A stretch of 64,000 nt of DNA from a virus (Duplodnaviria; Heunggongvirae; Uroviricota; Caudoviricetes). This document shows positions 3,504-50,010 of this stretch, one piece after another. How positions within the stretch are numbered: position 1 is the first letter of the stretch; each line of letters starts with the position of its first letter. The notes below the pieces were generated by a model that did no database searches, was not told the origin of the DNA, and worked only from the letters and a program-made list of their open reading frames with translations. The DNA lies in the IMG/VR virus record IMGVR_UViG_3300020721_000006, one strand, 5' to 3'. The position numbers and the translations under genes are program-made.

Positions 3504-3560
3504 GATAAATAGATATAGGTCGCGGGATTGCAGTCCCCACCTATTCTAAAGCCTTGGAGG
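3504..3560 (+). promoter_or_regulatory. late-promoter-like GATAAATA box (3504-3511) plus conserved hairpin ATAGGT-CGCGGGATTGCAGTCCCC-ACCTAT (3515-3544) and GGAGG RBS (3556-3560) preceding GIY-YIG gene
   Basis: same architecture found upstream of the other four GIY-YIG genes, with compensatory stem changes. Confidence 0.45.
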
Positions 3561-3568
3561 TCATCAGC

Positions 3569-4237
3569 ATGAATATTTATCAACCTTATACGTATCTATT
3601 AAAATTTAAACCAACTGGGCAAGTTTATTATGGAGTTTCGTATATTAATCATTATAGAGGAAAAGCACATCCATCTCAATTATGGAATACCTACTTTTCA
3701 TCATCTAAATATGTTAAAGAATTAATAAAAATTTATGGACAGGAAATGTTTGATGTGCAAGTTAGAAAAGTATTTGTATGTAGAGAAGATGCAATTAAAT
3801 GGGAACATAAAGTTTTAAAAAATTTGATGCAAAAAACAATCCAATGTGGCTCAATAAAAGTAATGGTGGAAAACAATTTATATCTCAATTTGGTAGAATT
3901 GTCACAGATGAAACCCGAAAGAAAATAGGACTTGCAAATACCGGAAAACTAAACAAAAAGAAGGGAACAACACTTTCAGACGAAACTAGGAAAAAGATGT
4001 CAATAGCATCTACCGGAAGAAAACATTCAGATGAAACAAAGAGAAAGATATCTGAGTTCAATAAAGGAAAACATCAGGGTGATAAAAATCCATTTTATGG
4101 TAAAAAATCATACACCCGAATCAATTGCAAAAATGTCAGAATCTCACAAAGGACACATTCCATGGAATAAAGGAAAGCCTGCACCACTAATTTGTCGTGT
4201 TATAGATAAAAAAGAGATGTCTGTGTTAAAGGTGTAA
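3569..4237 (+). pseudogene. GIY-YIG / NUMOD3 homing endonuclease (Seg/I-TevI-like) split over three frames
   Basis: N-terminal IYQPYTY...YYG nuclease motif; C-terminal repeats of SDETRKKxSxAxTG and NPFYGKK (NUMOD3); needs -1 shift at A AAA AAT (3817-3823) and +1 shift in A6 run (4102-4107); true start ATG 3569 (ORF-track start 3554 is a TTG). Confidence 0.7.
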
Positions 4238-4331
4238 AAGACATCCAGAAAATTAAAAAAATGTCCTCATTGTAATTTTTCAAGTAGAGGGTTACGATGG
4301 GGAAATAACTGTGATAATTGTGTATATAAAA

Positions 4332-4859
4332 ATGGCGAAACTTATGAGTAAAATAGAAAATAGAATAGAAATATATGTAGATTTAGATGAAGTAGTAGCA
4401 AACTTTATGGGATATGCTCGCAAGTTCTTTGACAAACAACTTAAAGACGGTGATAAACTACTAGTGGATGAATGGAACAAATTAAGTAGTAATCCACACC
4501 TATTTAGAGATCTTGAAGTTAAAGATAACGCATACGAATTAATCGATTGGTTGAAAAAGTATCAACAAGAAACTGGATCAGAACTATATTTTCTAACTGC
4601 TATTCCATCAAAGAACACAGTGAAATTTGCTGCACAAGATAAAGTGTATTGGTGTAATAAATATTTTCCAGATATTCCAGTTATAATTGGTCCGTATAGC
4701 CATGATAAACATTTACAATGCAGTGGCAATCATTGTATACTGTTAGATGATAGATTAGATAACTGTACACAATGGCGCGAAGTCGGTGGCCGTGCTCATC
4801 AATATAAAACTTGGGAACAATGTAAAATTTGGTTAGAGCAAGAACTATTGAATAAATAG
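4332..4859 (+). CDS. 5'(3')-deoxyribonucleotidase-like HAD-family phosphatase
   Basis: motif I YVDLDEVVANF (DxDxV) near N-terminus and ILLDDR motif, as in NT5C-type nucleotidases; start could be 4311, 4332 or 4344. Confidence 0.55.
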   Translation: MAKLMSKIENRIEIYVDLDEVVANFMGYARKFFDKQLKDGDKLLVDEWNKLSSNPHLFRDLEVKDNAYELIDWLKKYQQETGSELYFLTAIPSKNTVKFAAQDKVYWCNKYFPDIPVIIGPYSHDKHLQCSGNHCILLDDRLDNCTQWREVGGRAHQYKTWEQCKIWLEQELLNK

Positions 4860-4867
4860 AATTTAAA

Positions 4868-4973
4868 ATTGCTTATTAATTAATTTATATGATAAATAAG
4901 TAATATTAAAGGAATAAAAAATTGCTTATTAATTAATTTATATGATAAATAAGTAATATTAAAGGAATAAAAA
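4868..4973 (+). repeat. perfect 2 x 53-bp tandem duplication carrying late-promoter-like GATAAATA box and AAAGGAATAAAAA RBS immediately upstream of the tail-fibre module
   Basis: copy 1 4868-4920, copy 2 4921-4973, identical; GATAAATA at 4891-4898 and 4944-4951; ATG at 4974. Confidence 0.9.
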
Positions 4974-5210
4974 ATGGCAACACAGATAGGAAATGGAAAC
5001 GTTCTTTTTGGTGATGGTAGTTCACAAACTTCGGCAACACCTACCGGAAATCCAGCAACTGGGCTTGGATTTGTCTATGAAAATTCACAATCTGTAACAC
5101 AAAATTACACAATGACTAGTGGTAAATCAGGTATGTCAACTGGTCCAATTACTTTTGGACCGGGAATAACAGTTACGATTCCTAGTGGCTCAAGATGGAT
5201 AGTATTATAA
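4974..5210 (+). CDS. small fibre-module protein (78 aa), Gly/Ser/Thr-rich
   Basis: ORF directly after late promoter/RBS; motif GNVLFGDGSSQTSATPTG typical of fibre N-termini. Confidence 0.45.
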   Translation: MATQIGNGNVLFGDGSSQTSATPTGNPATGLGFVYENSQSVTQNYTMTSGKSGMSTGPITFGPGITVTIPSGSRWIVL

Positions 5211-5220
5211 AGGATAACAT

Positions 5221-6489
5221 ATGGCAATTATAAACGCAAGTAATACTAGTGGATTAGTTCAAACTGGTGATGCTAGTGGAGTACTTGCCCTTCAAACTGG
5301 CGGAACTACTGCGGTCACTATAGATGCTTCAGGCAACGTGGGGATTGGGACGAGTAGTCCTACACAAAAGCTAGATGTCACAGGAAACATCAACACTTCA
5401 GGTTCATTAAATAGCATCAACACTTTTGGATTCAAAAACAGAATTATCAATGGTGGCATGGCTATAGACCAGCGTAATGCTGGGGCGCAGATAACAGCAG
5501 CTAACTTGGCTCCCAGCGCATACATGGTTGACCGTTGGTCATACTCTGCTTCACAGGCCGCAAAATTTACGGCGCAGCAAAATGCTGGGGCTGTAACAAC
5601 TCCAGTTGGGTTCCCAAATTATCTTGGCATGACAGTTGCTTCGGCATTTACCGTTGGCGCGGGTGATTGGTTTTGTATTGGTCAATCAGTAGAAGGGTTT
5701 AATTTTGCAGACTTGGCATGGGGGACGGCAAGCGCAAAAACCGTAACTCTTTCATTTGTTGTTTATAGCTCTTTAACAGGTACATTCGGGGGCGCACTTC
5801 GCAACAACGCAACGAACCGTTCATATCCATTTACATATTCAATACCGACAGCAAACACTTGGACCACAATATCGGTGACCATTGCTGGCGATACAAGCGG
5901 AACTTGGGTTGGGGCGACAAACGGACTTGGTGTTTCTCTCTTTTTCGGTCTTGGCGTAGGTACTACTTACAGTGGCACGGCAGGAGCTTGGGCGGCAACA
6001 AACTATATATCAGTTACTGGCGCAGTTTCCGTAGTCGGCACATCAGGTGCTACGTTCTACATCACAGGTGTTCAACTTGAGAAAGGATCAACCGCCACGA
6101 GCTTTGACTATAGGCCGTATGGGACTGAGTTGGCGTTGTGTCAGAGATATTTTGAAAAGTCTTTTAATGTAAGTGTAGCCCCCGCCAACGGTACAACGGC
6201 TACGACTTTAATTGATAATGCTGGTTGTTTTGCTAGCATGGCAATAAATGGCCAAGTTGATGGTGGGTTTATATCGTTTAAAGTATCAAAGAGGGCAGTC
6301 CCTACTTTAACTATTTATGGAAATAATAGTGGGTATTGGAACTATTATAGTGGTGGAGCATCTTTATGGGGGGCAAATGCGTATTCCCCTGGTACTTTGG
6401 GTGAAAATGGACATGCTTTTTCGCAACAAGTTGTAAATGCCATAGCTATTGCTGTTAGAGGGCATTGGACTGCTTCAGCGGAGCTATAA
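5221..6489 (+). CDS. tail fibre protein
   Basis: N-terminal [22 protein letters not shown] motif shared with ORFs 6858 and 9798; G/S/T/A-rich beta-rich composition. Confidence 0.7.
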   Translation: MAIINASNTSGLVQTGDASGVLALQTGGTTAVTIDASGNVGIGTSSPTQKLDVTGNINTSGSLNSINTFGFKNRIINGGMAIDQRNAGAQITAANLAPSAYMVDRWSYSASQAAKFTAQQNAGAVTTPVGFPNYLGMTVASAFTVGAGDWFCIGQSVEGFNFADLAWGTASAKTVTLSFVVYSSLTGTFGGALRNNATNRSYPFTYSIPTANTWTTISVTIAGDTSGTWVGATNGLGVSLFFGLGVGTTYSGTAGAWAATNYISVTGAVSVVGTSGATFYITGVQLEKGSTATSFDYRPYGTELALCQRYFEKSFNVSVAPANGTTATTLIDNAGCFASMAINGQVDGGFISFKVSKRAVPTLTIYGNNSGYWNYYSGGASLWGANAYSPGTLGENGHAFSQQVVNAIAIAVRGHWTASAEL

Positions 6490-6492
6490 AAA

Positions 6493-6861
6493 ATGTACAA
6501 ACTAACTAACAACACATCAATAATCCGCATAGAAGATAACGCTTGTATCCCAAACGATCCAACCAACACCGATTACCAAGCCTACCTAGCGTGGCTAGAA
6601 GAGGGCAACACACCCGAACCTGCTGATATACCACCTGTAGTTATACCCAACATCTCAATGCGACAAGCGAGATTAGCACTATTAGCTGATGGCTTACTTG
6701 ATGATATTGAAGCTGCTATGTCTACACCTGAGTATAAAATTTGGTGGGAATATTCAACGGTTGTTGAGCGTAATAATCCGCTTGTTGAGCAAGTGCTAGC
6801 AATCCTCGGCAAAAGTGATGCTGAGATAGATCAAATGTTTATAGGAGCATCACAGTTATGA
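6493..6861 (+). CDS. hypothetical protein in fibre module (122 aa)
   Basis: ORF tightly packed between fibre genes (overlaps next by 4 nt). Confidence 0.45.
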
Positions 6862-8471
6862 GTTCTATCGTAGTTGCTGGAGATACCAGCGGTTCAATCA
6901 CATTACAAGCGCCTGCAGTAGCAGGGAGTACGGTTTTAACTTTGCCCACAACTTCAGCAACTTTAATCACGGACAGCTCGGGAATATTGAACATAGGCTC
7001 AGGTCAAGTCTATAAAGATGCTTCAGGCAACGTGGGGATTGGGGTTATACCTAGCCCAGCCCAGGGAGGGTTATTACAATTAGGTAACACATCACAATAT
7101 GGTTTTCAAGGGCCAATAGGTTATTTAAACGCAAATATATACTTTGGAACTGGGGCTTTTAGGTACTCAATAACAGGCGCAGCTTCGTCATATCAACAAA
7201 ATTCAGGGTATCATATTTGGAGTTACGCGGCTTCAGGTACAGCCAATGCAGCGGTTTCTTTAACAGAAGCTATGCGCATCGACTCCTCCGGCAACGTGGG
7301 GATTGGGACGAGTAGTCCTAGCACTTACGCTGGAAAAGTAGTTTCTTACAATAATACAAATGGTTTAGCGTCATTTACAGCGTTGTCTGGTTTAGCGGCT
7401 ACCAGTGTTATAGAAATACAAGATGGTGCAGCAACTCCAAACAGATGGTGGTTATTATCTGGATTAGGAACAACAACAGATGGAACTTTTTCTATTTATG
7501 ATAAAAGGCAAAGTGTTTCAAGATTAGCCATCGACTCCAGCGGCAACGTGGGGATTGGGACTACACCATCAGGAACATACAAACTTGAAGTAACAGGAGC
7601 TATAGGTAGTTCAACCACCATAAATGCAACAACCGGATATAAGGTTGCAGGTGCAGCTACATCAGGACAATATCTACGAGGTAATGGCACTAACTTTGTA
7701 TCTTCTGCCATACAAGCAGCTGATGTACCCACACTTAATCAAAATACTACAGGCAATGCCGCCAATGTGACGGGAACTGTTGCCGTAGGTAACGGTGGAA
7801 CTGGGTCAACAACATTGCCCACTAATAACGTGCTACTAGGTAACGGCACATCAGCATTACAAGCGGTCGCCCCAAGTACATCGGGCAACGTATTAACATC
7901 AAATGGGACAACATGGCAATCAATCGCGCCAAGTGGTGGCGGTGGCGGTTTCACCAGTATGGTCGTCTTCACAGCATCAGGTACATGGACTATTCCTGCT
8001 GGCATTACTAAGGCGAAAGTGACTATCCAAGGGGCTGGCGGTGGTGGTGGTGGTGGTTTTGGTTATGAAAACGGCGGCGGCGGCGGTGCGACTATAAAAT
8101 ATGTAACTGGATTGACTCCAGGTGGAACTGTTGTTTGTACGATTGGCGCTGGTGGCTCTGGTGCCGTCGCTTGTGGTGCGAATGGTGGTGCGGGCGGGAC
8201 TACATCTTTTGGCGCTTATTGCTCTGTAACTGGCGGAGGAGCAGGGCTTTCGTCAGGAGTCACAGGGTCAGGAGGCGTAGGAACAGGCGGGAATTGGAAC
8301 CTTACTGGATCAGGTTTATTTTCAGGTTATTATATCAACACACCGCCCTCTTTATCCTATATTTCTGATGGCACTGTGGCACGAGGTAGTGGTGGCGTTG
8401 CTGGTAATTATTGTGGAGTACCTACACCAGCTACTGCTGGAATGTCAGGTTTTATCATGATTGAATATTAA
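6858..8471 (+). CDS. tail fibre protein with four SGNVGIGT repeats and glycine-rich C-terminal region
   Basis: repeats DASGNVGIG / DSSGNVGIG x4; poly-Gly tracts [17 protein letters not shown] near C-terminus. Confidence 0.7.
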
Positions 8472-8484
8472 GGAGAAAATATAA

Positions 8485-8736
8485 ATGAAAGCATTAATAA
8501 GCCCTATTGAACCTGTAAACAATTCTGACGGCACAACGGGCTATCGAGTTGCACAAGTTGAAGAAATAACTTTTGATGTAGCTGAACCATTATATTGGCT
8601 TGACTGCGATGCCAACGTGATAGCAGATATTTACTATTTTGATACTACATCTAATAATATATTAATTAAGCCTGTTATTGCTCATACTAATGTATCAAAC
8701 ACACAACCAATATCAACTGGAACACAAGCATTCTAA
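8485..8736 (+). CDS. hypothetical protein (83 aa)
   Basis: RBS AAGGAGAAAAT upstream; TAATG coupling to next gene. Confidence 0.45.
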   Translation: MKALISPIEPVNNSDGTTGYRVAQVEEITFDVAEPLYWLDCDANVIADIYYFDTTSNNILIKPVIAHTNVSNTQPISTGTQAF

Positions 8737-9020: not shown

Positions 9021-9036
9021 GGGCATGGTGATGAGT

Positions 9037-9201
9037 ATGCTAGATAAACTTGAAGCTTCAGCTAGAGCCGCGTCATGTATTTCATATTTAACTAGCGTGG
9101 GGTTAGTGACTGGAAGTCTCTGGGAGTTTTTAAACACTAACGCCGCTGGCTTTGGTGCAGAAAAACTAAAAGAGTTACTTGCTCTTGTGAAGAGTAAATA
9201 A
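9037..9201 (+). CDS. small protein (~54 aa), one hydrophobic segment
   Basis: ORF below track cutoff; stop TAA 9199-9201 overlaps ATG of next gene. Confidence 0.3.
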   Translation: MLDKLEASARAASCISYLTSVGLVTGSLWEFLNTNAAGFGAEKLKELLALVKSK

Positions 9202-30822: not shown

Positions 30823-31410
30823 TTATAATTTTAATTTTTTAAGATTAAATGGGAGGCGTCCTGGAACACATTCTTCTGGACAGGATGAGCTTAAGAAAGA
30901 ACGTTGTCCATTATTATACCATTTATAATTTTCTCGTGACTTAGTTCTTTGGGCAATTGCATCAGCCGGTTGTTGTTTTCCACGTTTTACTGCTGCATTA
31001 TTTTCTTTATGTTCCGCAGTTTGTGGTCCATAACGTTGCCCTTTCTTAACAGATGCCATATGCTGTTTGTATTCTGCAGTGCGAACTTTTCCAGAATTAG
31101 CAATTGATAATTTTTTAATAGTTTCAATAGAATGCTTACCACTATGACCAGCTTCTTCTTTAAGATTAGCCCATTCAGTGCTTTCAACTACATTCCATAA
31201 ATTACTATAATATAAACCCCATTCTTCAATTTCGCTCATGCTTTGACATTCTTTGAGAATTATTGTTTCAACATCATATCCATGTTTTTTGATGTGTAAT
31301 TTCCATTTAACTCCAGAACCTTTATAATTGTATGGGTCTGGTTTAGTTGTCATTCCTAAATATTTAAGGCCGGTTTTTCTATGTGTTTTTTGGTATAGAT
31401 AAATAATCAT
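30823..31410 (-). CDS. GIY-YIG homing endonuclease with NUMOD3 repeats
   Basis: IYLYQKTH ... KYLGMT nuclease motif; HSIETIKKLS and KHSxE-type repeats. Confidence 0.8.
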   Translation of the reverse strand: MIIYLYQKTHRKTGLKYLGMTTKPDPYNYKGSGVKWKLHIKKHGYDVETIILKECQSMSEIEEWGLYYSNLWNVVESTEWANLKEEAGHSGKHSIETIKKLSIANSGKVRTAEYKQHMASVKKGQRYGPQTAEHKENNAAVKRGKQQPADAIAQRTKSRENYKWYNNGQRSFLSSSCPEECVPGRLPFNLKKLKL

Positions 31411-31475
31411 GTTGATACTCCATATAGTATTAAAGTAGATGGGAAGTCCAATTCCGCGATCTACACTTATTTATC
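31411..31475 (-). promoter_or_regulatory. HEG leader module: GATAAATAAG late-type box + hairpin GTAGAT-CGCGGAATTGGACTTCCC-ATCTAC + GGAG RBS
   Basis: conserved with 3504-3560, 35563-35665, 47809-47876, 49943-50010. Confidence 0.5.
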
Positions 31476-31484: not shown

Positions 31485-31513
31485 TTGACATTTATACTTC
31501 ATTATAATATAAT
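31485..31513 (+). promoter_or_regulatory. consensus promoter TTGACA-N17-TATAAT
   Basis: -35 31485-31490, -10 31508-31513. Confidence 0.55.
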
Positions 31514-31544: not shown

Positions 31545-32048
31545 ATGAATGATAAACCATTATGCATAATGCTTGTAGGTATTCCAGGTAGTGGAAAATC
31601 CTATTTTAACCAATATTCATTATATGAAATGTTCCCGCAATTATCACATGATAATACTGTATTTGTGAGCACAGACAAGTATATTGAACAATACGCAACT
31701 CAACACAATAAAACTTATAATGAGGTGTTTCAAGAACAAATTAAACCAGCCACTAAAAATATGTATGACATGGTAGAAGATGCAGTTAATAATAATAAAA
31801 ACATATCATGGGACCAAACAAATACCAGTGTTAAAACAAGATCATTTAAAATTAAAGCAGTTCCTGATACCTATGAGAAAATTGCTGTCATGTTTATGAC
31901 ACCAGAAGATAAAGAACACGCTAGACGATTAGCATCACGACCTGGTAAGAATATACCAGATGAAATAATGGCTAATATGAAAGCACAATTAGAAATTCCA
32001 ACCGAAAAGGAAGGATTTGATAATATTATTTTTGTAGATAACAAATAG
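31545..32048 (+). CDS. P-loop kinase (AAA_33-like; polynucleotide/nucleotide kinase candidate)
   Basis: Walker A MLVGIPGSGKSY at N-terminus, 167 aa. Confidence 0.5.
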   Translation: MNDKPLCIMLVGIPGSGKSYFNQYSLYEMFPQLSHDNTVFVSTDKYIEQYATQHNKTYNEVFQEQIKPATKNMYDMVEDAVNNNKNISWDQTNTSVKTRSFKIKAVPDTYEKIAVMFMTPEDKEHARRLASRPGKNIPDEIMANMKAQLEIPTEKEGFDNIIFVDNK

Positions 32049-32298: not shown

Positions 32299-32562
32299 AT
32301 GAGCAATCATATTTATTGGGTTGAAGTCCTTGAAAGAGAACCAGGTACCTTAGATAGCAAACAAGTTTTAAATGAATATCCATTCCCAGAGGTACCATTT
32401 GAACCATTTGGGTTTGACTTGGAACTGTTCAAAGAACAACTTAACAAAATTGAAAATAGGCACCAACGGCTTGCTTCACAGAACAGATTTAACTTTATTA
32501 CTGAACGATGGCATCCAAATAATTTTCTTAGAGTTGTAAGAAAACCTTGGAAATATGCTTGA
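32299..32562 (+). CDS. hypothetical protein
   Basis: ORF. Confidence 0.45.
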   Translation: MSNHIYWVEVLEREPGTLDSKQVLNEYPFPEVPFEPFGFDLELFKEQLNKIENRHQRLASQNRFNFITERWHPNNFLRVVRKPWKYA

Positions 32563-32587
32563 CAAACTATACAATAACCAGTATAAT
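32559..32587 (+). promoter_or_regulatory. consensus promoter TTGACA-N17-TATAAT inside 3' end of previous gene
   Basis: -35 32559-32564, -10 32582-32587. Confidence 0.5.
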
Positions 32588-34596: not shown

Positions 34597-35562
34597 TTAT
34601 TTTGGATGATTGCGATTATAAGTTTCTTTATATTTTAATCTTGACTGCAGTTTTTGTTCGGCGGTCCTACCACTTTTTGTTTGTTTTTCTTTCCGTTTTC
34701 GTTCATTCTCCTGTTCAGGAGTTCTAGCAGCATGAGAATTTTTTAGTTTTAGTGTTATTACTAATTTTTCTTCTGGTGTTTTAGCATCAAATGTAGCTTT
34801 GCGCTTTGCTATAATATCTAATTTTTCTTCTAACGGTTTTGCCTCGATGGTTGCTTTAAGTGTTGTTTTTTGTTTTTCTATTTGAGTTTGTTTTTCTTCA
34901 GGTGACCTAGCATTCTTTGTTTTCCATTCTTTTTGTTTAGTTTCCAATTTTTCTTCTGATGTTCTATTAATTTTAGCTAATCTTTGTTTTTCTTTCGTTG
35001 CTAATTTTTCCTCTGGAGATTTTGCATCTTCTGTAGCTTTTTTCTTTGCATTGACCAATAATCTTTCTGCTGGGGTTCTTGAAGTTTTTGCTAGTCGTTG
35101 CTTTTCTTTAATTGTATAGTTTTCTTCTGCACTTCTAGCTGCTTCTGTAGCTTTTTTCTTTTCTGCAATTAATGTTTTTTCATACAAACATTTAGCCTTT
35201 CTAGTTATTGCAGTTTTTGCAATAGAATCTTCAGTAGCATGAAATTTATTACCACCGTTATTTTTATTAAGCCAATATGGACTTTTCGCTGCATTAATTC
35301 TTGTTAAGAACTTATGTTCCCAAGCGACTGTATCTTTTCTAGTTTTAAATATTTTTCGTATTTGAACAGAAAATAATTCCTTGCCATGTAGAGCAATTAG
35401 ATTTTTTATTTCTTTTGATGATGTAAAATATGTCACCCAAAACTCAGTTGGATTTGCCACATTTTTTCTACTATTTGCATACCTACATCCGTAATAACGT
35501 TGGCCGGTTATTAGAAATGTTATGCAATATGTATACGGGACATAAATAAGTTTGTTGGTCAT
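34597..35562 (-). CDS. GIY-YIG-like endonuclease N-domain fused to long array of ~25-aa RTPEEKL/KEKQRLAK repeats
   Basis: N-terminus homologous to ORF 3569 (PYTY ... TGQ.YYG ... WEHK ... WLNKNNGG). Confidence 0.65.
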   Translation of the reverse strand: MTNKLIYVPYTYCITFLITGQRYYGCRYANSRKNVANPTEFWVTYFTSSKEIKNLIALHGKELFSVQIRKIFKTRKDTVAWEHKFLTRINAAKSPYWLNKNNGGNKFHATEDSIAKTAITRKAKCLYEKTLIAEKKKATEAARSAEENYTIKEKQRLAKTSRTPAERLLVNAKKKATEDAKSPEEKLATKEKQRLAKINRTSEEKLETKQKEWKTKNARSPEEKQTQIEKQKTTLKATIEAKPLEEKLDIIAKRKATFDAKTPEEKLVITLKLKNSHAARTPEQENERKRKEKQTKSGRTAEQKLQSRLKYKETYNRNHPK

Positions 35563-35665
35563 AATTGTTTCCTTAAATAATTGTTAGAATGATTAATGCT
35601 TATGGGAATTTGCCGTTCCGCGATAAGCAACCGATTTTCTCAATCGATGTATTTATTTATATAAA
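35563..35665 (-). promoter_or_regulatory. HEG leader module: TATAAATAAATA late box + hairpin GCTTAT-CGCGGAACGGCAAATTCCC-ATAAGC
   Basis: same architecture as other HEG leaders. Confidence 0.45.
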
Positions 35666-44139: not shown

Positions 44140-44958
44140 ATGATGAGAATACTAGTTACCGGCGCCAACGGGTTCATTGGACGAAATATGCTTGAATGGT
44201 TAGCACAAGAAGAATTCTGGGATGTTGAAATCTGGAACTGGGATCCAAATAACTATCCTGATGTACGACGATATAAATGGGTTATCCACTTAGGAGCGGT
44301 TACCGATACTAGTGATAAAGATGTTGATACCATTATACACAAAAACTATGAGTTTAGTCAATGGCTTTTTCAAGAATGCAATAAAAATAAAGTTCATTTG
44401 CAATATGCGAGTACACATGATGTATATGGAACTAATAAGAATTTTAGTGAATTTGCACCTTGTCATCCACATACCCCATATGCTTGGTCAAAATACTTAT
44501 TTGATAGATGGGTTTTTCAACAAGAACACAGTGTTTATGTCCAAGGATTCAGGTACTTCAATGTATATGGAAAATATATGTATACCAAGGGAAGTCGTGC
44601 AGATATTATGTATAAATGGAGAGAAGAAGCAAAGTCAACTGGAACTATAAAAGTATGGAATAATGCAGAACACATAAAACGCGATTGGGTATGGGTTGGT
44701 GATGTTTGTAGATTACATATTGATTTTATTAAACAAGTCAATGGATCTGGAATCTGGAATGTTGGGACTGGGTTATCACACTCGTATTTTGACATCGCTA
44801 CTGAAATAGCAGAACAAGAAGATGCTGTTATAGAATTTGTAGAAGCTGGTACTACAGAAAGATATGATGTAAAGGCAGATTTGAAACATCTTAAAGCAAC
44901 TATTGGAAAACGTAAATGGTTGAATATATATGAATGGATTGATAGACGAAATGGATAA
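44140..44958 (+). CDS. NAD-dependent epimerase/dehydratase (SDR family; ADP-heptose 6-epimerase-like)
   Basis: N-terminal TGANGFIGRN Rossmann motif, YAWSK (YxxxK) catalytic motif. Confidence 0.75.
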   Translation: MMRILVTGANGFIGRNMLEWLAQEEFWDVEIWNWDPNNYPDVRRYKWVIHLGAVTDTSDKDVDTIIHKNYEFSQWLFQECNKNKVHLQYASTHDVYGTNKNFSEFAPCHPHTPYAWSKYLFDRWVFQQEHSVYVQGFRYFNVYGKYMYTKGSRADIMYKWREEAKSTGTIKVWNNAEHIKRDWVWVGDVCRLHIDFIKQVNGSGIWNVGTGLSHSYFDIATEIAEQEDAVIEFVEAGTTERYDVKADLKHLKATIGKRKWLNIYEWIDRRNG

Positions 44959-44982
44959 ATATATGATTAGAAGGATTAAATC

Positions 44983-45336
44983 ATGAGAGCAAATGAATTT
45001 TTAAAAGAAGCAAAACTTGGTGTAGAAGCTAAACGAGCAATGCGTGAGGGAAGTCGTCCAGGACGTGGGCACAAACCGGAAGCATGTTATAATATGGATG
45101 AAGAATTTGAATTGGATGAAGCTGGAAAAACACCAAAATCAGTTTGCTTAAGTAAAAAAACTGACAAAGAATTAGGTGCTAGTCAACTTTCATCTTGTAA
45201 AGCACAAGGTTTAAGAAAACGTGATACAAAACGTAAGTTTAAAACTGGTGGAAGTGATGTACCAAAAAGTATTAAAGGGAAGAAAGTACGTAGCTCAGAT
45301 TATGGTGGCCCGTTGCCAAAATGGAAAGGTAACTAA
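44983..45336 (+). CDS. highly basic small protein (internal-protein-like), N-terminus MRANEFLKEA
   Basis: Lys/Arg-rich 117 aa; CTS-like start. Confidence 0.5.
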   Translation: MRANEFLKEAKLGVEAKRAMREGSRPGRGHKPEACYNMDEEFELDEAGKTPKSVCLSKKTDKELGASQLSSCKAQGLRKRDTKRKFKTGGSDVPKSIKGKKVRSSDYGGPLPKWKGN

Positions 45337-45914
45337 TGAGATTCCAAGAATTCAAGGTATTAAAAGAATTAGCAAGTCCACTGAGTATTATATCACAGGC
45401 TGCTGATCTCGCTACTAAATATTCAAACCCATTTTCTGCATTAGGGATTAGTAGTGGAAATGATACTAGTGGTAATACTGCTAGTAATCTTCCAGGTGAC
45501 CAAAATATTAAAATTGGGTCAGGTGGTACAGGGTCTATAAATAAAAATGAAGTATCATCATATTTAAAATCAAAAATGGATGATAACCATAGATTAGGTA
45601 TTTTAGCCAATATAGAAGGTGAGTCACATTTTCAACCAGGAGTATTAGGTGATAAAAATACAAGTGGTGGATTATTTCAACATCATAATGAGAGATTTAC
45701 TAATATGGTAAATTACGTTGGAAGTGATTGGGCTACTGATTGGAAAAATCAAATTGATTTTGCATTATCAGAACCAGAAGGTAAACAATATTTGGCAACT
45801 AGATTTAGGACACCAGAACAGGCAACTGAATGGTGGGTTAGAAATTTTGAAAGACCAAAATATGCAACATCTGATACAAATAAACGTATTGGTTATTTAA
45901 AAAATTTTGGATAA
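45336..45914 (+). CDS. putative virion-associated lysozyme-like (tail/ejection lysozyme-type) protein, N-terminus MRFQEFKVLKE
   Basis: C-terminal block ILANIEGESHFQPGVLGD ... SGGLFQHHNERF ... WKNQIDFALSE ... WWVRNFERP resembles phage tail-lysozyme domain. Confidence 0.45.
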   Translation: MRFQEFKVLKELASPLSIISQAADLATKYSNPFSALGISSGNDTSGNTASNLPGDQNIKIGSGGTGSINKNEVSSYLKSKMDDNHRLGILANIEGESHFQPGVLGDKNTSGGLFQHHNERFTNMVNYVGSDWATDWKNQIDFALSEPEGKQYLATRFRTPEQATEWWVRNFERPKYATSDTNKRIGYLKNFG

Positions 45915-45937
45915 CATTATACTAAGTTAAATACCTA

Positions 45938-46507
45938 ATGAATTTAGGTAATATAGTAGGTAATTTAATAATAGCACCACCATCAGTCAAAGGCAACTTT
46001 TGGTATAAAACAGTTATAATGATAGTTGAACATTATAATTATGGAAGTATAGGTCTAGTCCTTAATAAACGTAGTAATCTAACTATTAATGAGTTGGGTG
46101 AAAAAGTAGGACTAGACTTTGATATACCAGGATTTGTTTATAATGGTGGACCAATTAGTCCCAATAGTCTTTCATTGATACATTCAAATGAATGGGAGTG
46201 TAAAAATACATTAAGAATCAATGATAACTTTTCATTAAGTTCATCAGATAAGATTCTGCCAAGACTTGCCAATGGTGACTTTCCAAATAAATGGAGATTG
46301 ATGTTTGGGATGTGTGGATGGGCCAATGACCAACTGCGCTCAGAAATATCGGGAACTCCACCGTATAATCATACCAATAGTTGGTGTACAGCTTCAAGCG
46401 ACATTGATTTGGTATTTGACCAAGATCAAAAAACACAATGGCAAAATGCGTTAGAAAAATCCGCAGAAGATTTTGCAAAATCAATTGAATTTAAAAGTAA
46501 AATATAA
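45938..46507 (+). CDS. AlgH/YqgE-family protein (UPF0301, DUF179)
   Basis: N-terminal LIIAPPSVKGNFWYKTVIMIVEHYNYGSIGLVLNKRSNL closely parallels E. coli YqgE. Confidence 0.7.
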   Translation: MNLGNIVGNLIIAPPSVKGNFWYKTVIMIVEHYNYGSIGLVLNKRSNLTINELGEKVGLDFDIPGFVYNGGPISPNSLSLIHSNEWECKNTLRINDNFSLSSSDKILPRLANGDFPNKWRLMFGMCGWANDQLRSEISGTPPYNHTNSWCTASSDIDLVFDQDQKTQWQNALEKSAEDFAKSIEFKSKI

Positions 46508-46518
46508 GATTACAGATT

Positions 46519-47031
46519 ATGGATTGTTTATTACTAAATGCATCAGGAATGCCTGTTAGTATAATGCCACTCAGCACTATATCATGGCAGGATTCAATAA
46601 AATATATGGTTTTAGAAAAAGCCGATGTTGTGCTGTGGCACGACAATTGGACCATTCGCTCTGCAAATTGGAAAACTAATGTCCCAGCTGTTCTAATGCT
46701 CCGTGAATATTTAAAACCAAAAACTACAGTAAAATTTAGTCGGGCAAGTTTACTGGTAAGAGATGATGGAATATGTCAATACTGCGGAACTACACTTAAT
46801 TTAAAAACTGCTACAATAGATCACGTTATCCCATCATCAAAAGGTGGAAGAACTAGTTGGAATAATTGTGCACTGTCATGTTCAAAATGTAATTCGGAAA
46901 AGGGAAATTCCTATCCATGGAAGAGCCCATATAATACTCCTTATAAACCTGATTATTTTGAATTAGTAAACAAACGTAAGAAATTTGGTTTTGAAGTTAA
47001 ACATAAGGAATGGTTACATTATATTTTTTAA
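46519..47031 (+). CDS. HNH endonuclease
   Basis: CQYCG ... IDHVIP ... [17 protein letters not shown]. Confidence 0.75.
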
Positions 47032-47808
47032 CGTATCTGATACAGTTTCTGGTGTCCTAAGCCAGAAAGTATATCCAGCAAACTTTCCTTTTTGTATAAT
47101 TTCCCCATCATACTTGTTAATAAGACAATAAATATTTCGTGCTTTAGCACCTATATTTGATGCAAAATCTGGTAGTGATATAAAAACATTAATATTTCCT
47201 TTTGGATCTTTTACAATTAATTTTTTACATTGTTCTCTAGTTTTTTCGTTTCCAATTTTACCGTGTAGTGCCAATTTATTTCTTTCATCGGAATTTAAAA
47301 ACCGTTTGGATTGTGCATTAGAGCAAGTAGCTTTATATATATCCGACATAAATTTTCCTTTATTTTTTGATGGTCTTCCTTTCATAGCTAATGATAATTT
47401 TAGATTTTTTCTGCCTGTATTAGCAAGTCTTGTTTTTTCCACTGCTTCTCTAGGCATTATTCTTCCTGTACATATTTTGGACATATGTATTTTATATTCT
47501 TCGGTATGTTTATATCCATGAGCACCTTCACCACCATCAGTTAGATTTCTTAAAATACCAGTTCCATTATTTTTCCTACCATACCATCGAATTACTCTAC
47601 GTTCAATTGCAAATGCTCCAATACTACTTAAATTTGATTCAATAATAACTATTCGTTTTTTATCAGTTGGGACTTTTACAGTATGGTCATTTGAGAAAGC
47701 TCGATAACCAGTTCCCTTGCCAATATAGTAAGGGGTTCCATCTTTTTTACGAAGATATGCGTATACATAAAATCTAAAAATAGGATCGTTGTTTGTATAA
47801 ATATTCAT
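47014..47808 (-). CDS. GIY-YIG homing endonuclease with NUMOD3 repeats
   Basis: FRFYVYAY ... PYYIGKGTG; [11 protein letters not shown] etc. Confidence 0.8.
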
Positions 47809-47876
47809 GTTGATACTCCTTCAAAGTATTAAAGTAGTTAGATGTTGACGCATCGTGAACTACATCTTTATTTATT
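47809..47876 (-). promoter_or_regulatory. HEG leader module: AATAAATAAAG late box + hairpin GTAGTT ... AACTAC + GAAGGAG RBS
   Basis: conserved architecture. Confidence 0.5.
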
Positions 47877-47891
47877 AAAATTATTAAAATT

Positions 47892-48302
47892 ATGAAAAAT
47901 ATACTTTGGAAAATAGCAGGATTTATCTTACTAGGATTGGCATATATCGGAGTAATCACCCCAGGGGTCCCCTTTAGCATTTTTATCGTGGGTGCTGCAT
48001 ATTGCTTTTCTAAAAGCAGTCCTAATATGCATAATTGGATTTATAATCATAAATTATTTGGTCCATTTATTACTAATTGGACACATTATAAGGTATTTCC
48101 AATCAAAGCAAAATACCTCATGGTAGGAATGATGGCTAGTAGTCTAATAATAATGTGGTTTACTACACATAATGAAAAAGCAGTGTTATATGCTGGCATT
48201 ACAATGTTTCTAGTCGTGATATGGGGATGGCGATATCCAGGAAGTATAAAAGAATATGATAATAGAATAGAATTACACAAAAAGATAGGGTGGTTTGTTT
48301 AA
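47892..48302 (+). CDS. YbaN-family inner-membrane protein (DUF454)
   Basis: PGVPFSIFIVGAAYCFSKSSP ... HNWIYNHKLFGPFITNW pattern parallels E. coli YbaN. Confidence 0.7.
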   Translation: MKNILWKIAGFILLGLAYIGVITPGVPFSIFIVGAAYCFSKSSPNMHNWIYNHKLFGPFITNWTHYKVFPIKAKYLMVGMMASSLIIMWFTTHNEKAVLYAGITMFLVVIWGWRYPGSIKEYDNRIELHKKIGWFV

Positions 48303-48337
48303 ATAACATAAATATTCAATAACCTCAAAGGATTTTT

Positions 48338-49051
48338 ATGAAATATATTTTATTACTATTACTAATGGTAGTTGCACCAGTACACGCTGGGGTAATCAAT
48401 GACCAATGTCCACAACTAACTGTAAATGGAACACCATTATATCAACCACATCCAGGTGACCAAGAAATTTGTCATTTGAACTATGCAGTGATTCATAGAT
48501 GTGATGTCAAAGCACCAGTAGCAGTGTTCGAACATCTATCTATGGATGATATGACAGGTCCAGCTAAAAGGAAAGACAACTTCCATCCAGATCCATCTGT
48601 TGCGCCACAATGTTCTGCAACATTAGCTGATTATGCTACTGTTGGTAACAAGTATGATCGAGGACATATGTCCCCAGCTAAGAATAATACACAAAATGAT
48701 GCTGTTATGAGTGAAAGTTTTAATTTGTCTAATATGGTTCCACAAGTTGCCAATAATAATAGAGGAATTTGGAAATCACTTGAAACTATTGAACGGCAAT
48801 GGGCTATGACACCAGGTACTGATTTTTATATTATATCAGGTGGAATTTATGACCCAGGACATTTTGTAACTGGGAATGGATTAGGAATTCCAACTCGATT
48901 ATATAAGATCATAGTTGAAAAGAATAGTAGAACAGTTAAAGCATATTTAATGCCAAATGCGCCATTACCAGTAGCAGATTTACCAAAATACGAAGTACCA
49001 ATGGCTGCAGTTGAAGAAGCAACTCAAATGAAATTTGAGTTGGGTCAGTAA
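48338..49051 (+). CDS. secreted DNA/RNA non-specific endonuclease (NucA/Serratia nuclease family)
   Basis: signal peptide MKYILLLLLMVVAPVHA; catalytic DRGHMSPA and NMVPQ motifs. Confidence 0.8.
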   Translation: MKYILLLLLMVVAPVHAGVINDQCPQLTVNGTPLYQPHPGDQEICHLNYAVIHRCDVKAPVAVFEHLSMDDMTGPAKRKDNFHPDPSVAPQCSATLADYATVGNKYDRGHMSPAKNNTQNDAVMSESFNLSNMVPQVANNNRGIWKSLETIERQWAMTPGTDFYIISGGIYDPGHFVTGNGLGIPTRLYKIIVEKNSRTVKAYLMPNAPLPVADLPKYEVPMAAVEEATQMKFELGQ

Positions 49052-49086
49052 CTCTGATAAATATTAGATATTCCAGGAGAATTAAA

Positions 49087-49455
49087 ATGAAAAGAATGTT
49101 AGTGTTAGTAGCAGTGATATCATTAGTAGGTTGTGCGTATATTCCAAGCAAATGGGATGGAAATGAAGCAAAAGCTATAATTGATATTGAAATGTCAGCA
49201 AAGTATTTTGATTGTGCTAATGTAAAAAGCCAAATCAATGACTTAAATAAACAAGTTGAATGGTTTAATACCTATTCAGTATCACGTGGTTCAAATGATA
49301 TAGTAGCATTATTTGAAGAACTACACAAGACAGTTGCAGAATTTAAAGAACGTAGTGACCGTGGTAAGGTTAGTCCTATGTATTGCTCTTTAAAAAAGAA
49401 AATTATAGAGCAACAAAGCGACATCATTGCCCGCGCAGTGCAAAAAAGATTTTAA
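49087..49455 (+). CDS. lipoprotein (122 aa); candidate partner/inhibitor of adjacent nuclease
   Basis: signal peptide + lipobox LVGC. Confidence 0.55.
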   Translation: MKRMLVLVAVISLVGCAYIPSKWDGNEAKAIIDIEMSAKYFDCANVKSQINDLNKQVEWFNTYSVSRGSNDIVALFEELHKTVAEFKERSDRGKVSPMYCSLKKKIIEQQSDIIARAVQKRF

Positions 49456-49465
49456 GGAGAATAAA

Positions 49466-49699
49466 ATGAGTTTATTAAGTGATATAATTAATAGTGGTCA
49501 ACAATGGGCCATCGATAGAGCTAATTATGCCGTCCAAGTTTCAGAAGCAGTTGCATCTGGTCAATTGAGTGCTGAAGAAGGAAAAGAAATTTTAGCAGAT
49601 CTAATTAGCACAGAAAAACTAGAAGAATCAGCTAATAATGCTCAACTTAGAGCAGCATTGGTAGAATTAGTTACAATCGCCGCTAAAGCTATGGCTTAA
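49466..49699 (+). CDS. hypothetical helical protein
   Basis: GGAGAATAAA RBS before ATG 49466. Confidence 0.4.
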   Translation: MSLLSDIINSGQQWAIDRANYAVQVSEAVASGQLSAEEGKEILADLISTEKLEESANNAQLRAALVELVTIAAKAMA

Positions 49700-49942
49700 T
49701 ACTGCAGTTAACGCATTTATTAAGTCTTCAATCAGTAATTCTTTATCAGTGAACGGATCAGATACCCATATAGTTTCTATAAATTCTTTGCCATGTTTTT
49801 TATAGTGTTTCTTCCAATATGTGCCGGACCCTAGATACTTATAAGGATCAGATTCTGTAGTTTTACCAAAATATTTAAGACCTGTTATTGAATGTTTTTT
49901 AATATAAAGATATGTTGGTGGTATTTCTGTATAAATACACAT
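49667..49942 (-). CDS. short free-standing GIY-YIG nuclease domain (no DNA-binding tail)
   Basis: CIYTEIPP ... LYIKKH ... KYFGKTT motif; real ATG at 49942, ORF-track start is TTG. Confidence 0.55.
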   Translation of the reverse strand: MCIYTEIPPTYLYIKKHSITGLKYFGKTTESDPYKYLGSGTYWKKHYKKHGKEFIETIWVSDPFTDKELLIEDLINALTAVLSHSFSGDCN

Positions 49943-50010
49943 GCTGATGTCCTCCATAGACGTTAGAGTAGTTGGGAACGTCAATTCCGTGAACTACATC
50001 TTTATTTATC
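49943..50010 (-). promoter_or_regulatory. HEG leader module: GATAAATAAAG late box (overlapping hemA stop codon) + hairpin GTAGTT-CACGGAATTGACGTTCCC-AACTAC + GGAGG RBS
   Basis: conserved architecture. Confidence 0.5.

Follow-up and report, generated by a model that had tools for sequence, protein, structure and literature searches.

The locus raises the question of why five endonuclease genes of one virus share the same upstream element, and on which strand that element acts. Within the window, the whole 64-kb stretch of jumbo-phage DNA that was analysed, a module of ~75 nt lies upstream of all five endonuclease genes. A sequence-only reading had interpreted it as a late-promoter box followed by a structured mRNA leader. 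Our analysis indicates that the module most likely encodes a small antisense RNA or a terminator that restrains the endonuclease, rather than a leader hairpin.

Five endonuclease genes share one module

The module consists, in this order, of an ATAAATA box, a bulged hairpin (HP1), a CTCTAA/TTTAAT linker, the SD, CAGC/CAAC, and the ATG. HP1 is built from a 6-bp outer stem, C-G/A-C, a 4-bp inner stem, and C. The genes and the boxes facing them are:

3505..3511, + strand: copy A box ATAAATA, late-promoter-like
3569..4170, + strand: endonuclease gene A, frameshift-split into a GIY-YIG part (3569-3928) and a NUMOD3 part (3844-4170)
30823..31410, - strand: endonuclease gene B, 195 aa
31468..31474, - strand: copy B box ATAAATA
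34597..35562, - strand: endonuclease gene C, 321 aa, SegE-type GIY-YIG
35650..35661, - strand: copy C box TATAAATAAATA, two overlapping ATAAATA boxes
47014..47808, - strand: endonuclease gene D, 264 aa, whose family was used for unbiased retrieval
47869..47875, - strand: copy D box ATAAATA
49667..49942, - strand: endonuclease gene E, a 91-aa truncated remnant
50003..50009, - strand: copy E box ATAAATA

The five sites exist as previously described, with copy C differing in SD (AAGGAA, not GGAG), gap, and spacer. The box lies 3-5 nt from HP1 in the window copies, except in copy C, where the gap spans 28 nt and holds an extra small hairpin (35631-35647), which on the + strand follows the HP1 counterpart and precedes a U-rich tail; the spacer of this copy is also longer. 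At 3569(+), the module is present as stated, but the ORF assigned to it is only the first part of the split gene. The copy E box indeed overlaps the TAA stop (50006-50008) of the 5-aminolevulinate synthase gene, which is genuine (TIGR01821, 560 bits versus a cutoff of 338). All five ORFs match PHROG 314 'homing endonuclease' (E 9e-14 to 6e-5), while gene C alone among them exceeds the cutoff for Pfam SegE_GIY-YIG.

A covariance model built on 50 copies and run with filters off on both strands of the 64 kb matches exactly these five copies (83.5, 82.9, 81.6, 76.9, and 50.2 bits; E 3e-20 to 2e-10); the strongest of the remaining matches has an E of 0.14. A structure-pattern scan of the window found no further true copies, and a comparison of the module with Rfam gave no match. 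The 5' boundary of the module is abrupt at the box, the flanks beyond being unrelated, and no conserved element was found at the 3' end of the endonuclease genes.

The module recurs widely. When viral-contig homologues of one GIY-YIG family were gathered through internal peptide motifs, 72 of the 80 had it upstream, bearing out the earlier proposal that it travels with the endonuclease gene. The link to GIY-YIG enzymes is not specific, since HNH and TnsA/Vsr-like endonuclease genes also carry the module at their 5' side. Additionally, it is found in cultured phages, with Rhizobium phage RHph_I1_18, Variovorax phage V45v66, and Pseudoalteromonas phage vB_Psh_XG4 as carriers.

HP1 covaries and carries its wobbles on the opposite strand

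The compensatory covariation noted among the five copies proves genuine once homologues are added. In the gene-strand alignment, all 11 pairs of HP1 show compensatory changes (178-181 cells; 0/500 shuffles), at 0.65-0.76 compared to 0.05-0.13 in slid controls. The inner stem of copy D (47834-47863), formerly regarded as diverged, is actually compensated, with GATG:CATC replacing GGAA:TTCC and A:T replacing the central G:C; GAT(A/G)/(C/T)ATC is the commonest inner stem across the gene D endonuclease family.

The non-canonical cells reveal the strand. Among 111 distinct copies, the gene strand displays 36 A·C/C·A, 0 G·U, and 3 other cells, the A·C/C·A cells being spread over at least 8 pair positions; consequently, the opposite-strand RNA contains G·U wobbles. 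As the commonest position stems from 14-16 related sequences, the independent wobble events number roughly a dozen rather than 36. Copy E exemplifies the pattern: its CAC variant reads A·C on the gene strand and G·U on the + strand. With the opposite strand aligned by plain MAFFT, HP1 is 99.7% paired, ~30 cells are G·U, and compensatory changes occur at 11/11 pairs; the gene strand reaches 95.5% and shows no G·U. The antisense hairpin has a mean of -9.9 kcal/mol and is followed by 6.1 T per 10 nt, compared to 4.0 on the sense side. HP1 is fully Watson-Crick in most copies and can thus form in the endonuclease mRNA too, and its bulged C-G-C core is conserved in sequence. HP1 is therefore most likely shaped for folding in an opposite-strand RNA, and may have a sense-strand role as well.

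A second hairpin surrounds the SD

A second covarying hairpin (HP2') is present around the SD. It forms an 8-bp antisense helix with compensatory changes at 6/8 pairs (arm permutation test, 0/5000) and holds an anti-Shine-Dalgarno sequence in its loop. One G·U is invariant in 60/60 sequences and equals A·C in the sense strand; the helix and this wobble are found solely on the anti-gene strand. From the 60 antisense sequences, RNAalifold recovers both hairpins unaided (-19.27 kcal/mol, 17/19 pairs compensatory), while the same 60 in sense yield one hairpin (-12.27 kcal/mol) and none in the SD region. The sense counterpart is a marginal hairpin of 3-5 bp (mean -2.45 kcal/mol, z about 0), less stable than the antisense form (-3.9, p 1e-10). 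The sequence-only reading had overlooked this hairpin, as well as a conserved TATTTA(T) in codons 2-4.

Two boxes face each other

The TATTTA(T) element is the complement of a second, outward-facing ATAAATA box (inner box or anti-box). TA[TC]TTA occurs in the first codons of 99/103 copies and in three reading frames (81/13/5). Its distance to the conserved CAGC is 5 nt in 75/103 copies and 4-6 nt in 91, wherever the ATG lies. The outer box shows the same geometry, with 5 nt to HP1 in 63/100 copies. In about 25% of one endonuclease subfamily, the inner box reads TACTTA, the complement of which, ATAAGTA, is a poor late box. The designation of the outer box as a T4/cyanophage-type late box is supported by its match to late promoters of T4-type and jumbo phages, NATAAATA in S-PM2 and ATAAATA, the proposed late promoter of CBB. 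Across the whole window, ATAAATA occurs 48 times, no more often than the ~60 copies predicted by base composition, and its enrichment upstream of genes is only mild. Judged from a 7-nt motif, both boxes are candidate promoters.

The inner boxes and the predicted products of the anti-gene strand are:

3505..3568, - strand: copy A predicted antisense RNA (5' GCUGA ... HP1' ... U-rich tail), -16.7 kcal/mol, z -1.2
3515..3544, - strand: copy A HP1 (ATAGGT/CGC/GGGA...TCCC/C/ACCTAT), selected family-wide on the anti-gene strand
3574..3580, - strand: copy A anti-box; TATTTAT of codons 2-4, read as ATAAATA on the - strand and lying 5 nt ahead of the G of GCUG
31399..31405, + strand: copy B anti-box, ATAAATA within codons 2-4
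31411..31474, + strand: copy B predicted ~64-nt antisense RNA, -15.6 kcal/mol, z -2.9
35542..35548, + strand: copy C anti-box, 12 nt into the ORF (long-spacer 'MTxxxIY' subtype)
35598..35628, + strand: copy C HP1', outer stem GCTTAT/ATAAGC
47797..47803, + strand: copy D anti-box; TATAAATA (47797-47804) lies 88 nt upstream of ORF 47892-48302
47809..47875, + strand: copy D predicted 67-nt antisense RNA, -14.2 kcal/mol, z -2.5
49931..49937, + strand: copy E anti-box
49943..50009, + strand: copy E predicted 67-nt antisense RNA, -16.6 kcal/mol, z -1.9

For copies B, D, and E, the fold predicted for the RNA is identical to the consensus. Copy B comprises G, HP2' (31412-31433; 8 bp, loop CCAUAU after the CU of the anti-SD), HP1' (31435-31464), and the tail ACUUAUUUAU. 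Copy D is composed of HP2' (47810-47832), HP1' (47834-47863), and a U-rich tail, and copy E contains HP2' (49944-49966) and HP1' (49968-49997). In copy A, the second hairpin is weak, and the complement of the box provides the U-rich tail.

A cis-antisense RNA may restrain the endonuclease

We consider it somewhat better than even (roughly 55%) that convergent late-type promoters produce the endonuclease mRNA and a ~65-nt cis-antisense RNA that restrains the endonuclease. Two boxes of the form ATAAATA-N5-G would stand face to face. The outer box would start the mRNA at the base of HP1, while the inner box would start the antisense RNA. The latter would begin with GCUGA, followed by the 8-bp hairpin, whose loop has the anti-SD CUCC(U) on its 5' side. 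A linker of a single nucleotide, the last A of a conserved UUAGA (its UUAG being the 3' arm of this hairpin), would lead into HP1', an 11-bp doubly bulged hairpin, and a U-rich tail complementary to the outer box. Such an RNA would be perfectly complementary to the entire 5' UTR of the mRNA and could block ribosome binding or trigger decay, thereby keeping a toxic nuclease low. Where a genome holds several similar copies, the RNA of one might also act on the others, in the manner of IS10 RNA-OUT on RNA-IN. Further, transcription from neighbouring genes, which as a rule crosses the endonuclease gene in antisense, would be stopped by HP1' and the U tail. Both the synthesis and termination of a discrete RNA at the module and its repression of the endonuclease are suggested by the sequence features. 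The genomic context likewise favours an autonomous cassette. The flanking genes are mostly opposite to the endonuclease gene (both opposite at 36 loci, both co-oriented at 6), and gene B is the sole gene on its strand, both regionally and throughout a contig of at least 305 kb. Homologues that sit co-oriented in tightly packed cyanophage operons lack the module, and the inner box is kept perfect more often beside co-oriented neighbours than in fully antisense contexts. As a terminator, the predicted structure departs from the canonical form, its stem being bulged and its U-tract interrupted, and a simple terminator scan did not flag the module hairpin.

Alternative explanations

The module might instead serve the neighbours only, as a terminator or insulator whose hairpins and U-rich tail end backward transcripts through the endonuclease gene, often followed by a fresh early promoter, without a small RNA or direct regulation of the endonuclease. 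We regard this as possible, though rather unlikely. It accords with the U-rich tail on the antisense side, with a wobble asymmetry that suits any antisense-strand RNA, and with the flanking genes, both opposite to the endonuclease gene at 36 loci and both co-oriented at 6. Moreover, a sigma-70-type promoter (at least 10/12 positions) lies on the opposite strand just beyond the box in 31/110 copies versus 2/109 controls, as in the window, 10 nt past the copy B box:

31485..31513, + strand (that of the neighbours): perfect TTGACA-17-TATAAT, predicted to drive ORF 31545-32048

This arrangement resembles PeSLs, which are composite terminator/promoter motifs. However, this explanation accounts neither for the inner box, kept in three frames at a fixed 5 nt from GCUG, nor for the 8-bp hairpin with the anti-SD in its loop. 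It also leaves unexplained that the module, antisense-only wobbles included, persists beside co-oriented neighbours, where the inner box is perfect in 19/20 contexts, versus 22/35 fully antisense ones; window copies A and E are examples of such persistence. In a variant, the antisense RNA could stem wholly from neighbouring-gene read-through, with no dedicated small RNA.

The mRNA-leader proposal, in which HP1 is a 5'-terminal structure of the late mRNA (a stabiliser, processing site, or protein-binding site) tuning or timing expression, appears improbable. The 5-nt spacing would put a T4-type start on the first base of the stem, HP1 folds in the sense RNA of most copies, its core is conserved as expected for a protein site, and T4 and Aeh1 endonucleases are regulated by late promoters plus hairpins. 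The excess of A·C over G·U, the lower sense pairing, and the marginal sense hairpin at the SD speak against it. Nor does the analogy to I-TevI/seg genes, with RBS sequestration and a late start inside the hairpin, hold as stated, as HP1 contains no RBS. A modified gating scheme, in which the box (AUAAAUA) of read-through transcripts pairs with the anti-box (UAUUUAU) past the AUG, hiding the start in a three-way junction, while late transcripts begin after the box and are hence translatable, is very unlikely. The principle is known for I-TevI, segB, and mobE, five of five window copies fold this way with short flanks (pair probabilities 0.6-0.98), and perfect complementarity between the box region and the start region extends, at its longest, over 6.5 nt on average, compared to 3.9 in control windows. 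With 40-nt flanks, however, the helix is weak (mean 3 expected pairs; at least 4 in 30% of copies), and start-region accessibility shifts merely from 0.48 to 0.58. The boxes do not covary, TACTTA variants add a mismatch, and most copies lack a co-oriented upstream gene for read-through. Least probable of all is a DNA-level element, a cruciform/hairpin or recombination joint aiding shuffling or insertion of endonuclease cassettes. The high similarity of ~75 bp at many loci and across endonuclease families, the abrupt 5' boundary, and PeSL-mediated shuffling as a precedent would fit, but G·T and A·C mismatches disturb DNA pairing to a similar extent, so that the 36:0 asymmetry and the invariant G·U indicate RNA, and the 3' ends of the genes carry no conserved element.

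Comparison with known systems

The favoured pair of endonuclease mRNA and cis-antisense RNA, predicted here from sequence, has counterparts in IS10 RNA-OUT and in the cyanophage antisense RNA CfrI of S-PM2, which starts 57 nt inside the ORF of the F-CphI endonuclease and spans its 5' UTR.

Five endonuclease genes share one upstream module

The ORF starts at 3569 (+), 31410 (-), 35562 (-), 47808 (-) and 49942 (-) are preceded by the same elements in one order (5/5 sites). An ATAAATA box, termed the outer box, is followed 3-5 nt on (28 nt in copy C) by a hairpin, a CTCTAA or TTTAAT linker, the SD, CAGC or CAAC, and the ATG, together forming a module of ~75 nt.

Module-bearing genes of the window (modules: copies A to E)
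3569-4170 (+), gene A
30823-31410 (-), gene B
34597-35562 (-), gene C
47014-47808 (-), gene D
49667-49942 (-), gene E

The big hairpin has an outer stem of 6 bp and an inner stem of 4 bp, with a C-G/A-C motif between them whose central base forms a pair across two bulged C's, and it ends ~15 nt before the SD at the five sites. By motif match, (A/C/G)TAAATA stands 3-6 nt before the hairpin in ~92% of copies. The covariance model of the module, R1, is based on 50 copies, and an unfiltered run over the window finds five sites only (50-84 bits, E 2e-10 to 3e-20); the next match has E 0.14. Sequence reading and R1 thus confirm the shared module that the sequence-only reading had described at five endonuclease genes. 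The inner stem of the fifth copy (D), which had been called diverged, is instead compensated, with GATG:CATC replacing GGAA:TTCC and A:T replacing the central G:C. Rfam 15 gives no match at gathering score across the whole window, a permissive Rfam scan of copy B on both strands returned a chance lncRNA match only (E 9.3), and a tRNA/tmRNA scan found none. GGAA-loop-TTCC hairpins with flanking complementarity, recovered by a pattern scan at 61267 (-) and 48584 (-), look like chance matches because they come without box, endonuclease gene or covariance-model match.

ATAAATA is not over-represented in the window overall and is mildly enriched upstream of genes, so that the assignment of the boxes as putative promoters draws on analogy with NATAAATA in S-PM2 and with jumbo phage CBB, which carries ATAAATA upstream of structural genes and has a gp55-like sigma factor.

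All five genes match the homing-endonuclease family PHROG 314 and qualify as GIY-YIG homing endonucleases, defined by the catalytic domain, usually accompanied by NUMOD modules. Pfam SegE_GIY-YIG passes its threshold for gene C and stays below it for gene A, which holds NUMOD3 in its frameshifted tail, while the assignment of genes B, D and E comes solely from PHROG and the family alignment. Genes A (frameshifted) and E (a 91-aa stump) look inactivated; their modules are intact and keep the inner box described below, and copy E keeps the antisense-only wobble.

The window comes from a jumbo phage with 33% G+C that has not been cultured (ENA ERZ27271887, contig k141_174181 of 305,761 bp; exact protein in 34 data blocks). 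It has no close cultured relative, and its first 20 kb yielded no megablast match among cultured phages. Its AAA ATPase shares 35-50% identity with Microbacterium phage Pumpernickel and Rak2/CBB-like jumbo phages. A tandem gene array suspected at 36.5-39 kb was dropped, as there is no DNA-level tandem repeat in that interval. Several further features were observed.

Further features of the window
4892-4898 and 4945-4951 (+), two occurrences of TGATAAATAAGTAATATTAAAGGAATAAAAAAT at a distance of 53 nt, ahead of ORF 4974-5210 and the tail-fibre gene 5221-6489; apparently a late-type promoter/RBS unit in duplicate
46519-47031 (+), HNH endonuclease ORF without a module of its own, HNH domain resembling Cas9/IscB; converges on gene D and overlaps its 3' end by 18 nt
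50006-51214 (-), 5-aminolevulinate synthase (TIGR01821, 560 bits against a cutoff of 338), an unusual phage auxiliary metabolic gene and a hint of a haem pathway, or a host, of alphaproteobacterial type; the box of copy E overlaps its stop codon
55296-56576 (+), 426-aa TnpB/Cas12f-like protein (PF07282 TNB domain, PHROG 'transposase'), which adds another kind of nuclease gene, mobile or RNA-guided, to the window

The module travels with endonuclease genes of several families

In IMG/VR, a pattern that fixes the inner stem only (TCGCGGAA-N4-9-TTCCCA) returned, among the matches listed, 35 with ATAAATA upstream; all 35 have a perfectly paired outer stem, in more than 10 stem sequences. Circularity was avoided by an unbiased set of 80 viral-contig loci of the gene-D family, retrieved by internal peptide motifs only. 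R1 matches directly upstream and on the same strand in 72 of these 80 loci (~90%), confirming that the module travels with the endonuclease gene. The big hairpin keeps a conserved sequence at hundreds of unrelated loci. The flanks upstream of the box are unrelated from locus to locus and no conserved element was found at the 3' end of the endonuclease genes; thus, the mobile unit consists of the module and the ORF.

The proteins encoded after 48 motif-selected copies belong to several folds.

Proteins downstream of the module among 48 motif-selected copies
GIY-YIG proteins: PF01541, PF19835, PF22945
HNH proteins: PF01844, PF13392, PF14279
TnsA/Vsr-like endonuclease: 1
NUMOD3 modules in downstream proteins: 15

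On many viral contigs, a stretch of a few kb holds two or three endonuclease genes with modules, and such neighbours often belong to different nuclease families and differ in stem sequence. The module was located in three cultured phages, Rhizobium phage RHph_I1_18 (MN988519, 80286-80380), Variovorax phage V45v66 (PV558790, ~85989-86079) and Pseudoalteromonas phage vB_Psh_XG4 (PP712099, ~56128-56226), to which a blastn search using a second consensus added none. The module is absent from the endonuclease homologues of the cultured T4-like cyanophages S-SRM01, S-N03 and ACG-2014f, which are packed co-oriented into operons. Among 185,579 bacterial and archaeal genomes scanned, it was present on only two short MAG contigs, which argues that the module is phage-restricted.

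Covariation assigns both hairpins to the antisense strand

The sequence-only reading had noted compensatory changes among the five copies. With homologues added, this covariation holds firmly: among 64 distinct sequences of the unbiased set, read on the gene strand, all 11 pairs of the big hairpin show compensatory changes (178 cells), without a single G·U. Their covariation score of 0.647 compares with 0.195 for shuffles (0/500) and ~0.06-0.11 for slid controls. Across 111 distinct copies, the unpaired cells on the gene strand comprise 36 A·C or C·A, zero G·U and 3 others, the A·C/C·A cells being spread over at least 8 pair positions and both arm orientations. A cell with A·C on one strand has G·U on the opposite one, single transitions make both equally, and DNA tolerates neither; thus, pairing appears to have been selected in RNA transcribed from the strand opposite the gene. 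Consequently, the earlier interpretation stands as far as a mobile, covarying regulatory module is concerned, and its strand assignment does not. Compensatory covariation as such is blind to strand, which is revealed by the asymmetry between G·U and A·C.

In alignment A7, a plain MAFFT alignment of 60 antisense-strand sequences (56 from the unbiased set), pairing in the big hairpin reaches 99.7% and includes ~30 G·U cells, and 11/11 pairs show compensatory changes. Moreover, the SD region forms an 8-bp helix on this strand between the conserved GCUGA and UUAG, with 6/8 compensatory pairs and one G·U that is invariant in 60/60 sequences; the alternation of CAGC/TCTAA with CAAC/TTTAA in the window is one compensation of this helix. 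Unprompted, RNAalifold folds the antisense sequences into both hairpins (-19.27 kcal/mol, 17/19 pairs compensatory), whereas the same 60 sequences in sense give one hairpin only (-12.27). The arms of the second hairpin pair better with their own partner than with those of other copies (3.92 vs 2.66; 0/5000 permutations), and the SD region is more stable in antisense than in sense (-3.9 vs -2.45 kcal/mol, p 1e-10). A sense SD hairpin of 3-5 bp, tried as a translational attenuator, is marginal (z ~0), is not predicted by RNAalifold, and is better explained on the antisense strand. Taken together, it is very likely that the hairpins work in antisense-strand RNA.

An inner box faces outward from within the endonuclease ORF

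The first codons of 99/103 distinct copies include TA[TC]TTA, which falls into the three reading frames 81/13/5 times and yields N-termini such as M-x-I-Y and M-Y-L in different protein families. The use of three frames and of different protein families argues for a nucleotide rather than a peptide signal. Its complement is ATAAATA, identical to the outer box, and this inner box faces outward on the antisense strand. It keeps its distance from the conserved CAGC whatever the position of the ATG, at 5 nt in 75/103 copies and 4-6 nt in 91/103; in ~25% of one subfamily it reads ATAAGTA. The outer box likewise lies 5 nt from the hairpin in 63/100 copies. Given these equal spacings, the module can be described as two face-to-face ATAAATA-N5-G units ~75 bp apart.

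On the antisense strand, the big hairpin is followed by the complement of the outer box and of its A-rich spacer (ACUUUUAUUUAU), giving 6.1 T per 10 nt compared with 4.0 on the sense side. The hairpin has a mean of -9.9 kcal/mol in antisense, with a bulged stem and an interrupted U-tract; a simple terminator scan of 30.6-50.4 kb did not flag the module, which we attribute to the bulged stem. The RNAs predicted for copies B, D and E (64-67 nt) adopt the consensus fold with z of -2.9, -2.5 and -1.9, while those of copies A (pseudogene) and C (long-spacer subtype) fold less cleanly. The antisense strand offers a conserved secondary structure of its own, two hairpins with G·U on that strand only. 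By geometry, the predicted RNA spans the whole 5' UTR and is complementary to the RBS with the anti-SD exposed: at the top of the first hairpin, CUCC(U) lies partly in the terminal pairs of the stem and partly in the loop, on its 5' side.

Module-bearing genes tend to run opposite to their neighbours

The genes flanking module-bearing endonucleases are both on the opposite strand at 36 loci and both co-oriented at 6. Within the window, genes B and D have both flanking genes on the opposite strand, and gene B stands alone on its strand in its region of the jumbo-phage contig, which spans at least 305 kb. Just past the box, on the opposite strand, a near-consensus sigma-70 promoter (at least 10/12) is present in 31/110 copies (28%) compared with 2/109 controls.

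Perfect TTGACA-17-TATAAT promoters in the window
31485-31513 (+), abuts copy B
32559-32587 (+)
44132-44104 (-)
39900-39872 (-)

These four promoters fall within a 20-kb stretch of small ORFs, and the divergent module/sigma-70 arrangement of copy B recurs at many unrelated loci (31/110). A perfect inner box is kept in 19/20 co-oriented contexts vs 22/35 fully antisense contexts, a difference that is suggestive only, as the sequences are related.

A candidate antisense regulator and its alternatives

We propose that the module is a self-contained control cassette. The outer box would transcribe the endonuclease gene, and the inner box a ~65-nt two-hairpin RNA that would end at the large hairpin and its U-tail. 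Fully complementary to the endonuclease 5' UTR, this putative RNA may block the RBS or destabilise the mRNA and thereby repress the endonuclease, and the large hairpin would also stop transcripts of neighbouring genes that run backwards through the endonuclease gene. To this main reading, a discrete antisense regulator of the endonuclease, we assign a probability of roughly 0.55. Its most far-reaching version is tentative, with slightly less than even odds: an undescribed, very widespread ~65-nt two-hairpin cis-antisense RNA family, housed in a portable promoter cassette and captured by at least three unrelated homing-endonuclease families, in which the RNA would be an 'antidote' allowing either gene orientation, would, given several near-identical copies per genome, inhibit in trans according to copy number in the way of IS10 RNA-OUT, and would be unprecedented as a conserved non-coding RNA family specific to homing endonucleases.

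The main rival is a terminator or insulator for the neighbouring genes, sometimes combined with an early promoter in a PeSL-like arrangement. It accounts for the orientation bias but leaves three things unexplained, namely the inner box, the first hairpin of the antisense RNA, and the persistence of the module in co-oriented contexts. The mRNA-leader hairpin favoured by the sequence-only reading is disfavoured. An I-TevI-like gate, in which box and anti-box (the inner box) would form a long-range helix, as would suit a late start within the inhibitory structure that leaves late transcripts alone translatable, was demoted and is likewise disfavoured; the helix is good with short flanks but weak with 40-nt flanks, and zero covariation supports it. 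A role at the DNA level is contradicted by the wobble asymmetry.

The antisense-regulator reading would have several consequences. What keeps free-standing homing endonucleases from harming their carrier phage has been explained in only a handful of T4-type cases, all of them with mRNA hairpins; here, one conserved module accompanies ~90% of one endonuclease family as well as unrelated HNH and TnsA-like endonucleases in environmental phages. Should it be a discrete antisense regulator, homing endonucleases would be added to the selfish genes that small antisense RNAs keep in check, alongside transposases and type I toxins, the position of genes sitting backwards inside operons would be explained, and a strongly covarying candidate RNA family without an Rfam entry would be at hand in three cultured phages. 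The module is thus a strong candidate for a new, very common phage non-coding RNA tied to selfish endonucleases.

Comparison with known systems

In IS10/Tn10, an outward promoter inside the 5' end of the transposase gene produces RNA-OUT, a stable stem-loop RNA of ~70 nt directed against the 5' end of RNA-IN including its RBS; RNA-OUT holds down an enzyme that may do harm and can work from one copy on another. The module resembles this arrangement in combining a mobile nuclease gene, a putative outward promoter just inside its 5' end and a short predicted RNA complementary to the RBS. In contrast to RNA-OUT, with which it shares neither sequence nor structural homology, it has two hairpins rather than one and phage late-type boxes rather than sigma-70 promoters, and its predicted RNA would terminate at a hairpin for which the complement of the sense promoter serves as U-tail. 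P22 sar RNA, a phage antisense RNA of 68-69 nt, likewise pairs with the RBS region of its target mRNA, but this target is an antirepressor gene, not a nuclease, and there is no homology.

The I-TevI, I-TevII, I-TevIII and segB genes of T4 and mobE of Aeh1 are controlled by a late promoter and an RBS-sequestering mRNA hairpin, which contains the RBS and the late start (PMC2988022). The module shares with them a T4-type late box directly upstream of the endonuclease gene and an RNA structure that presumably restricts synthesis, whereas its main hairpin lies upstream of the RBS and is selected on the opposite strand. The analogy with T4 I-TevI and seg genes drawn earlier therefore fails at its defining feature, RBS sequestration, since the main hairpin stops ~15 nt short of the SD and the sense SD hairpin is marginal.

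The plastic genome regions of T4-type phages contain repeated PeSLs, short conserved motifs composed of a terminator and a promoter (PMC2839356, PMC4122927). The module recalls them in that a strong sigma-70 promoter comes after the antisense hairpin and U-tail in 28% of copies. PeSLs, however, bear an early promoter and adjoin small ORFs of whatever kind, whereas the module has late-type boxes, is tied to endonuclease genes and carries an early promoter only sometimes.

Judged by its description, the module is very probably the element of the marine 'fractured genes' of Dassa et al. 2009, where 5'-UTR hairpins with TATAAATA and two complementary conserved motifs precede GIY-YIG/Vsr-like endonucleases and are read as mobE-like mRNA translational hairpins (PMC2677866, in the passages describing the element). 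As described there, both concern free-standing endonucleases of several families from marine metagenomes, with a hairpin before the start codon, a late-promoter box and complementary motifs; covariation or strand analysis, an antisense promoter and a second hairpin do not feature in those passages.

The closest precedents in function are cis-antisense RNAs such as CfrI of cyanophage S-PM2, an experimentally detected phage antisense RNA (Millard et al. 2010, according to the relevant passages of PMC2984593 and PMC12197685). P22 sar, too, is listed in PMC12197685. In S-PM2 (NC_006820), CfrI (136544-136741, -) is annotated as beginning 57 nt inside the ORF of F-CphI (136684-137112, +), a free-standing homing endonuclease, and as covering its 5' UTR. 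As predicted for the module's RNA, the antisense 5' end thus lies in the 5' part of an endonuclease ORF and the transcript spans the 5' UTR. CfrI differs in its length of ~200-225 nt, against ~65 nt, and in extending into psbA, and F-CphI is co-oriented with its neighbours. The F-CphI leader consists of the psbA terminator hairpin directly followed by TATAAATA and gives no covariance-model match to the module. F-CphI/CfrI would therefore represent the logic of the module in non-homologous sequence.
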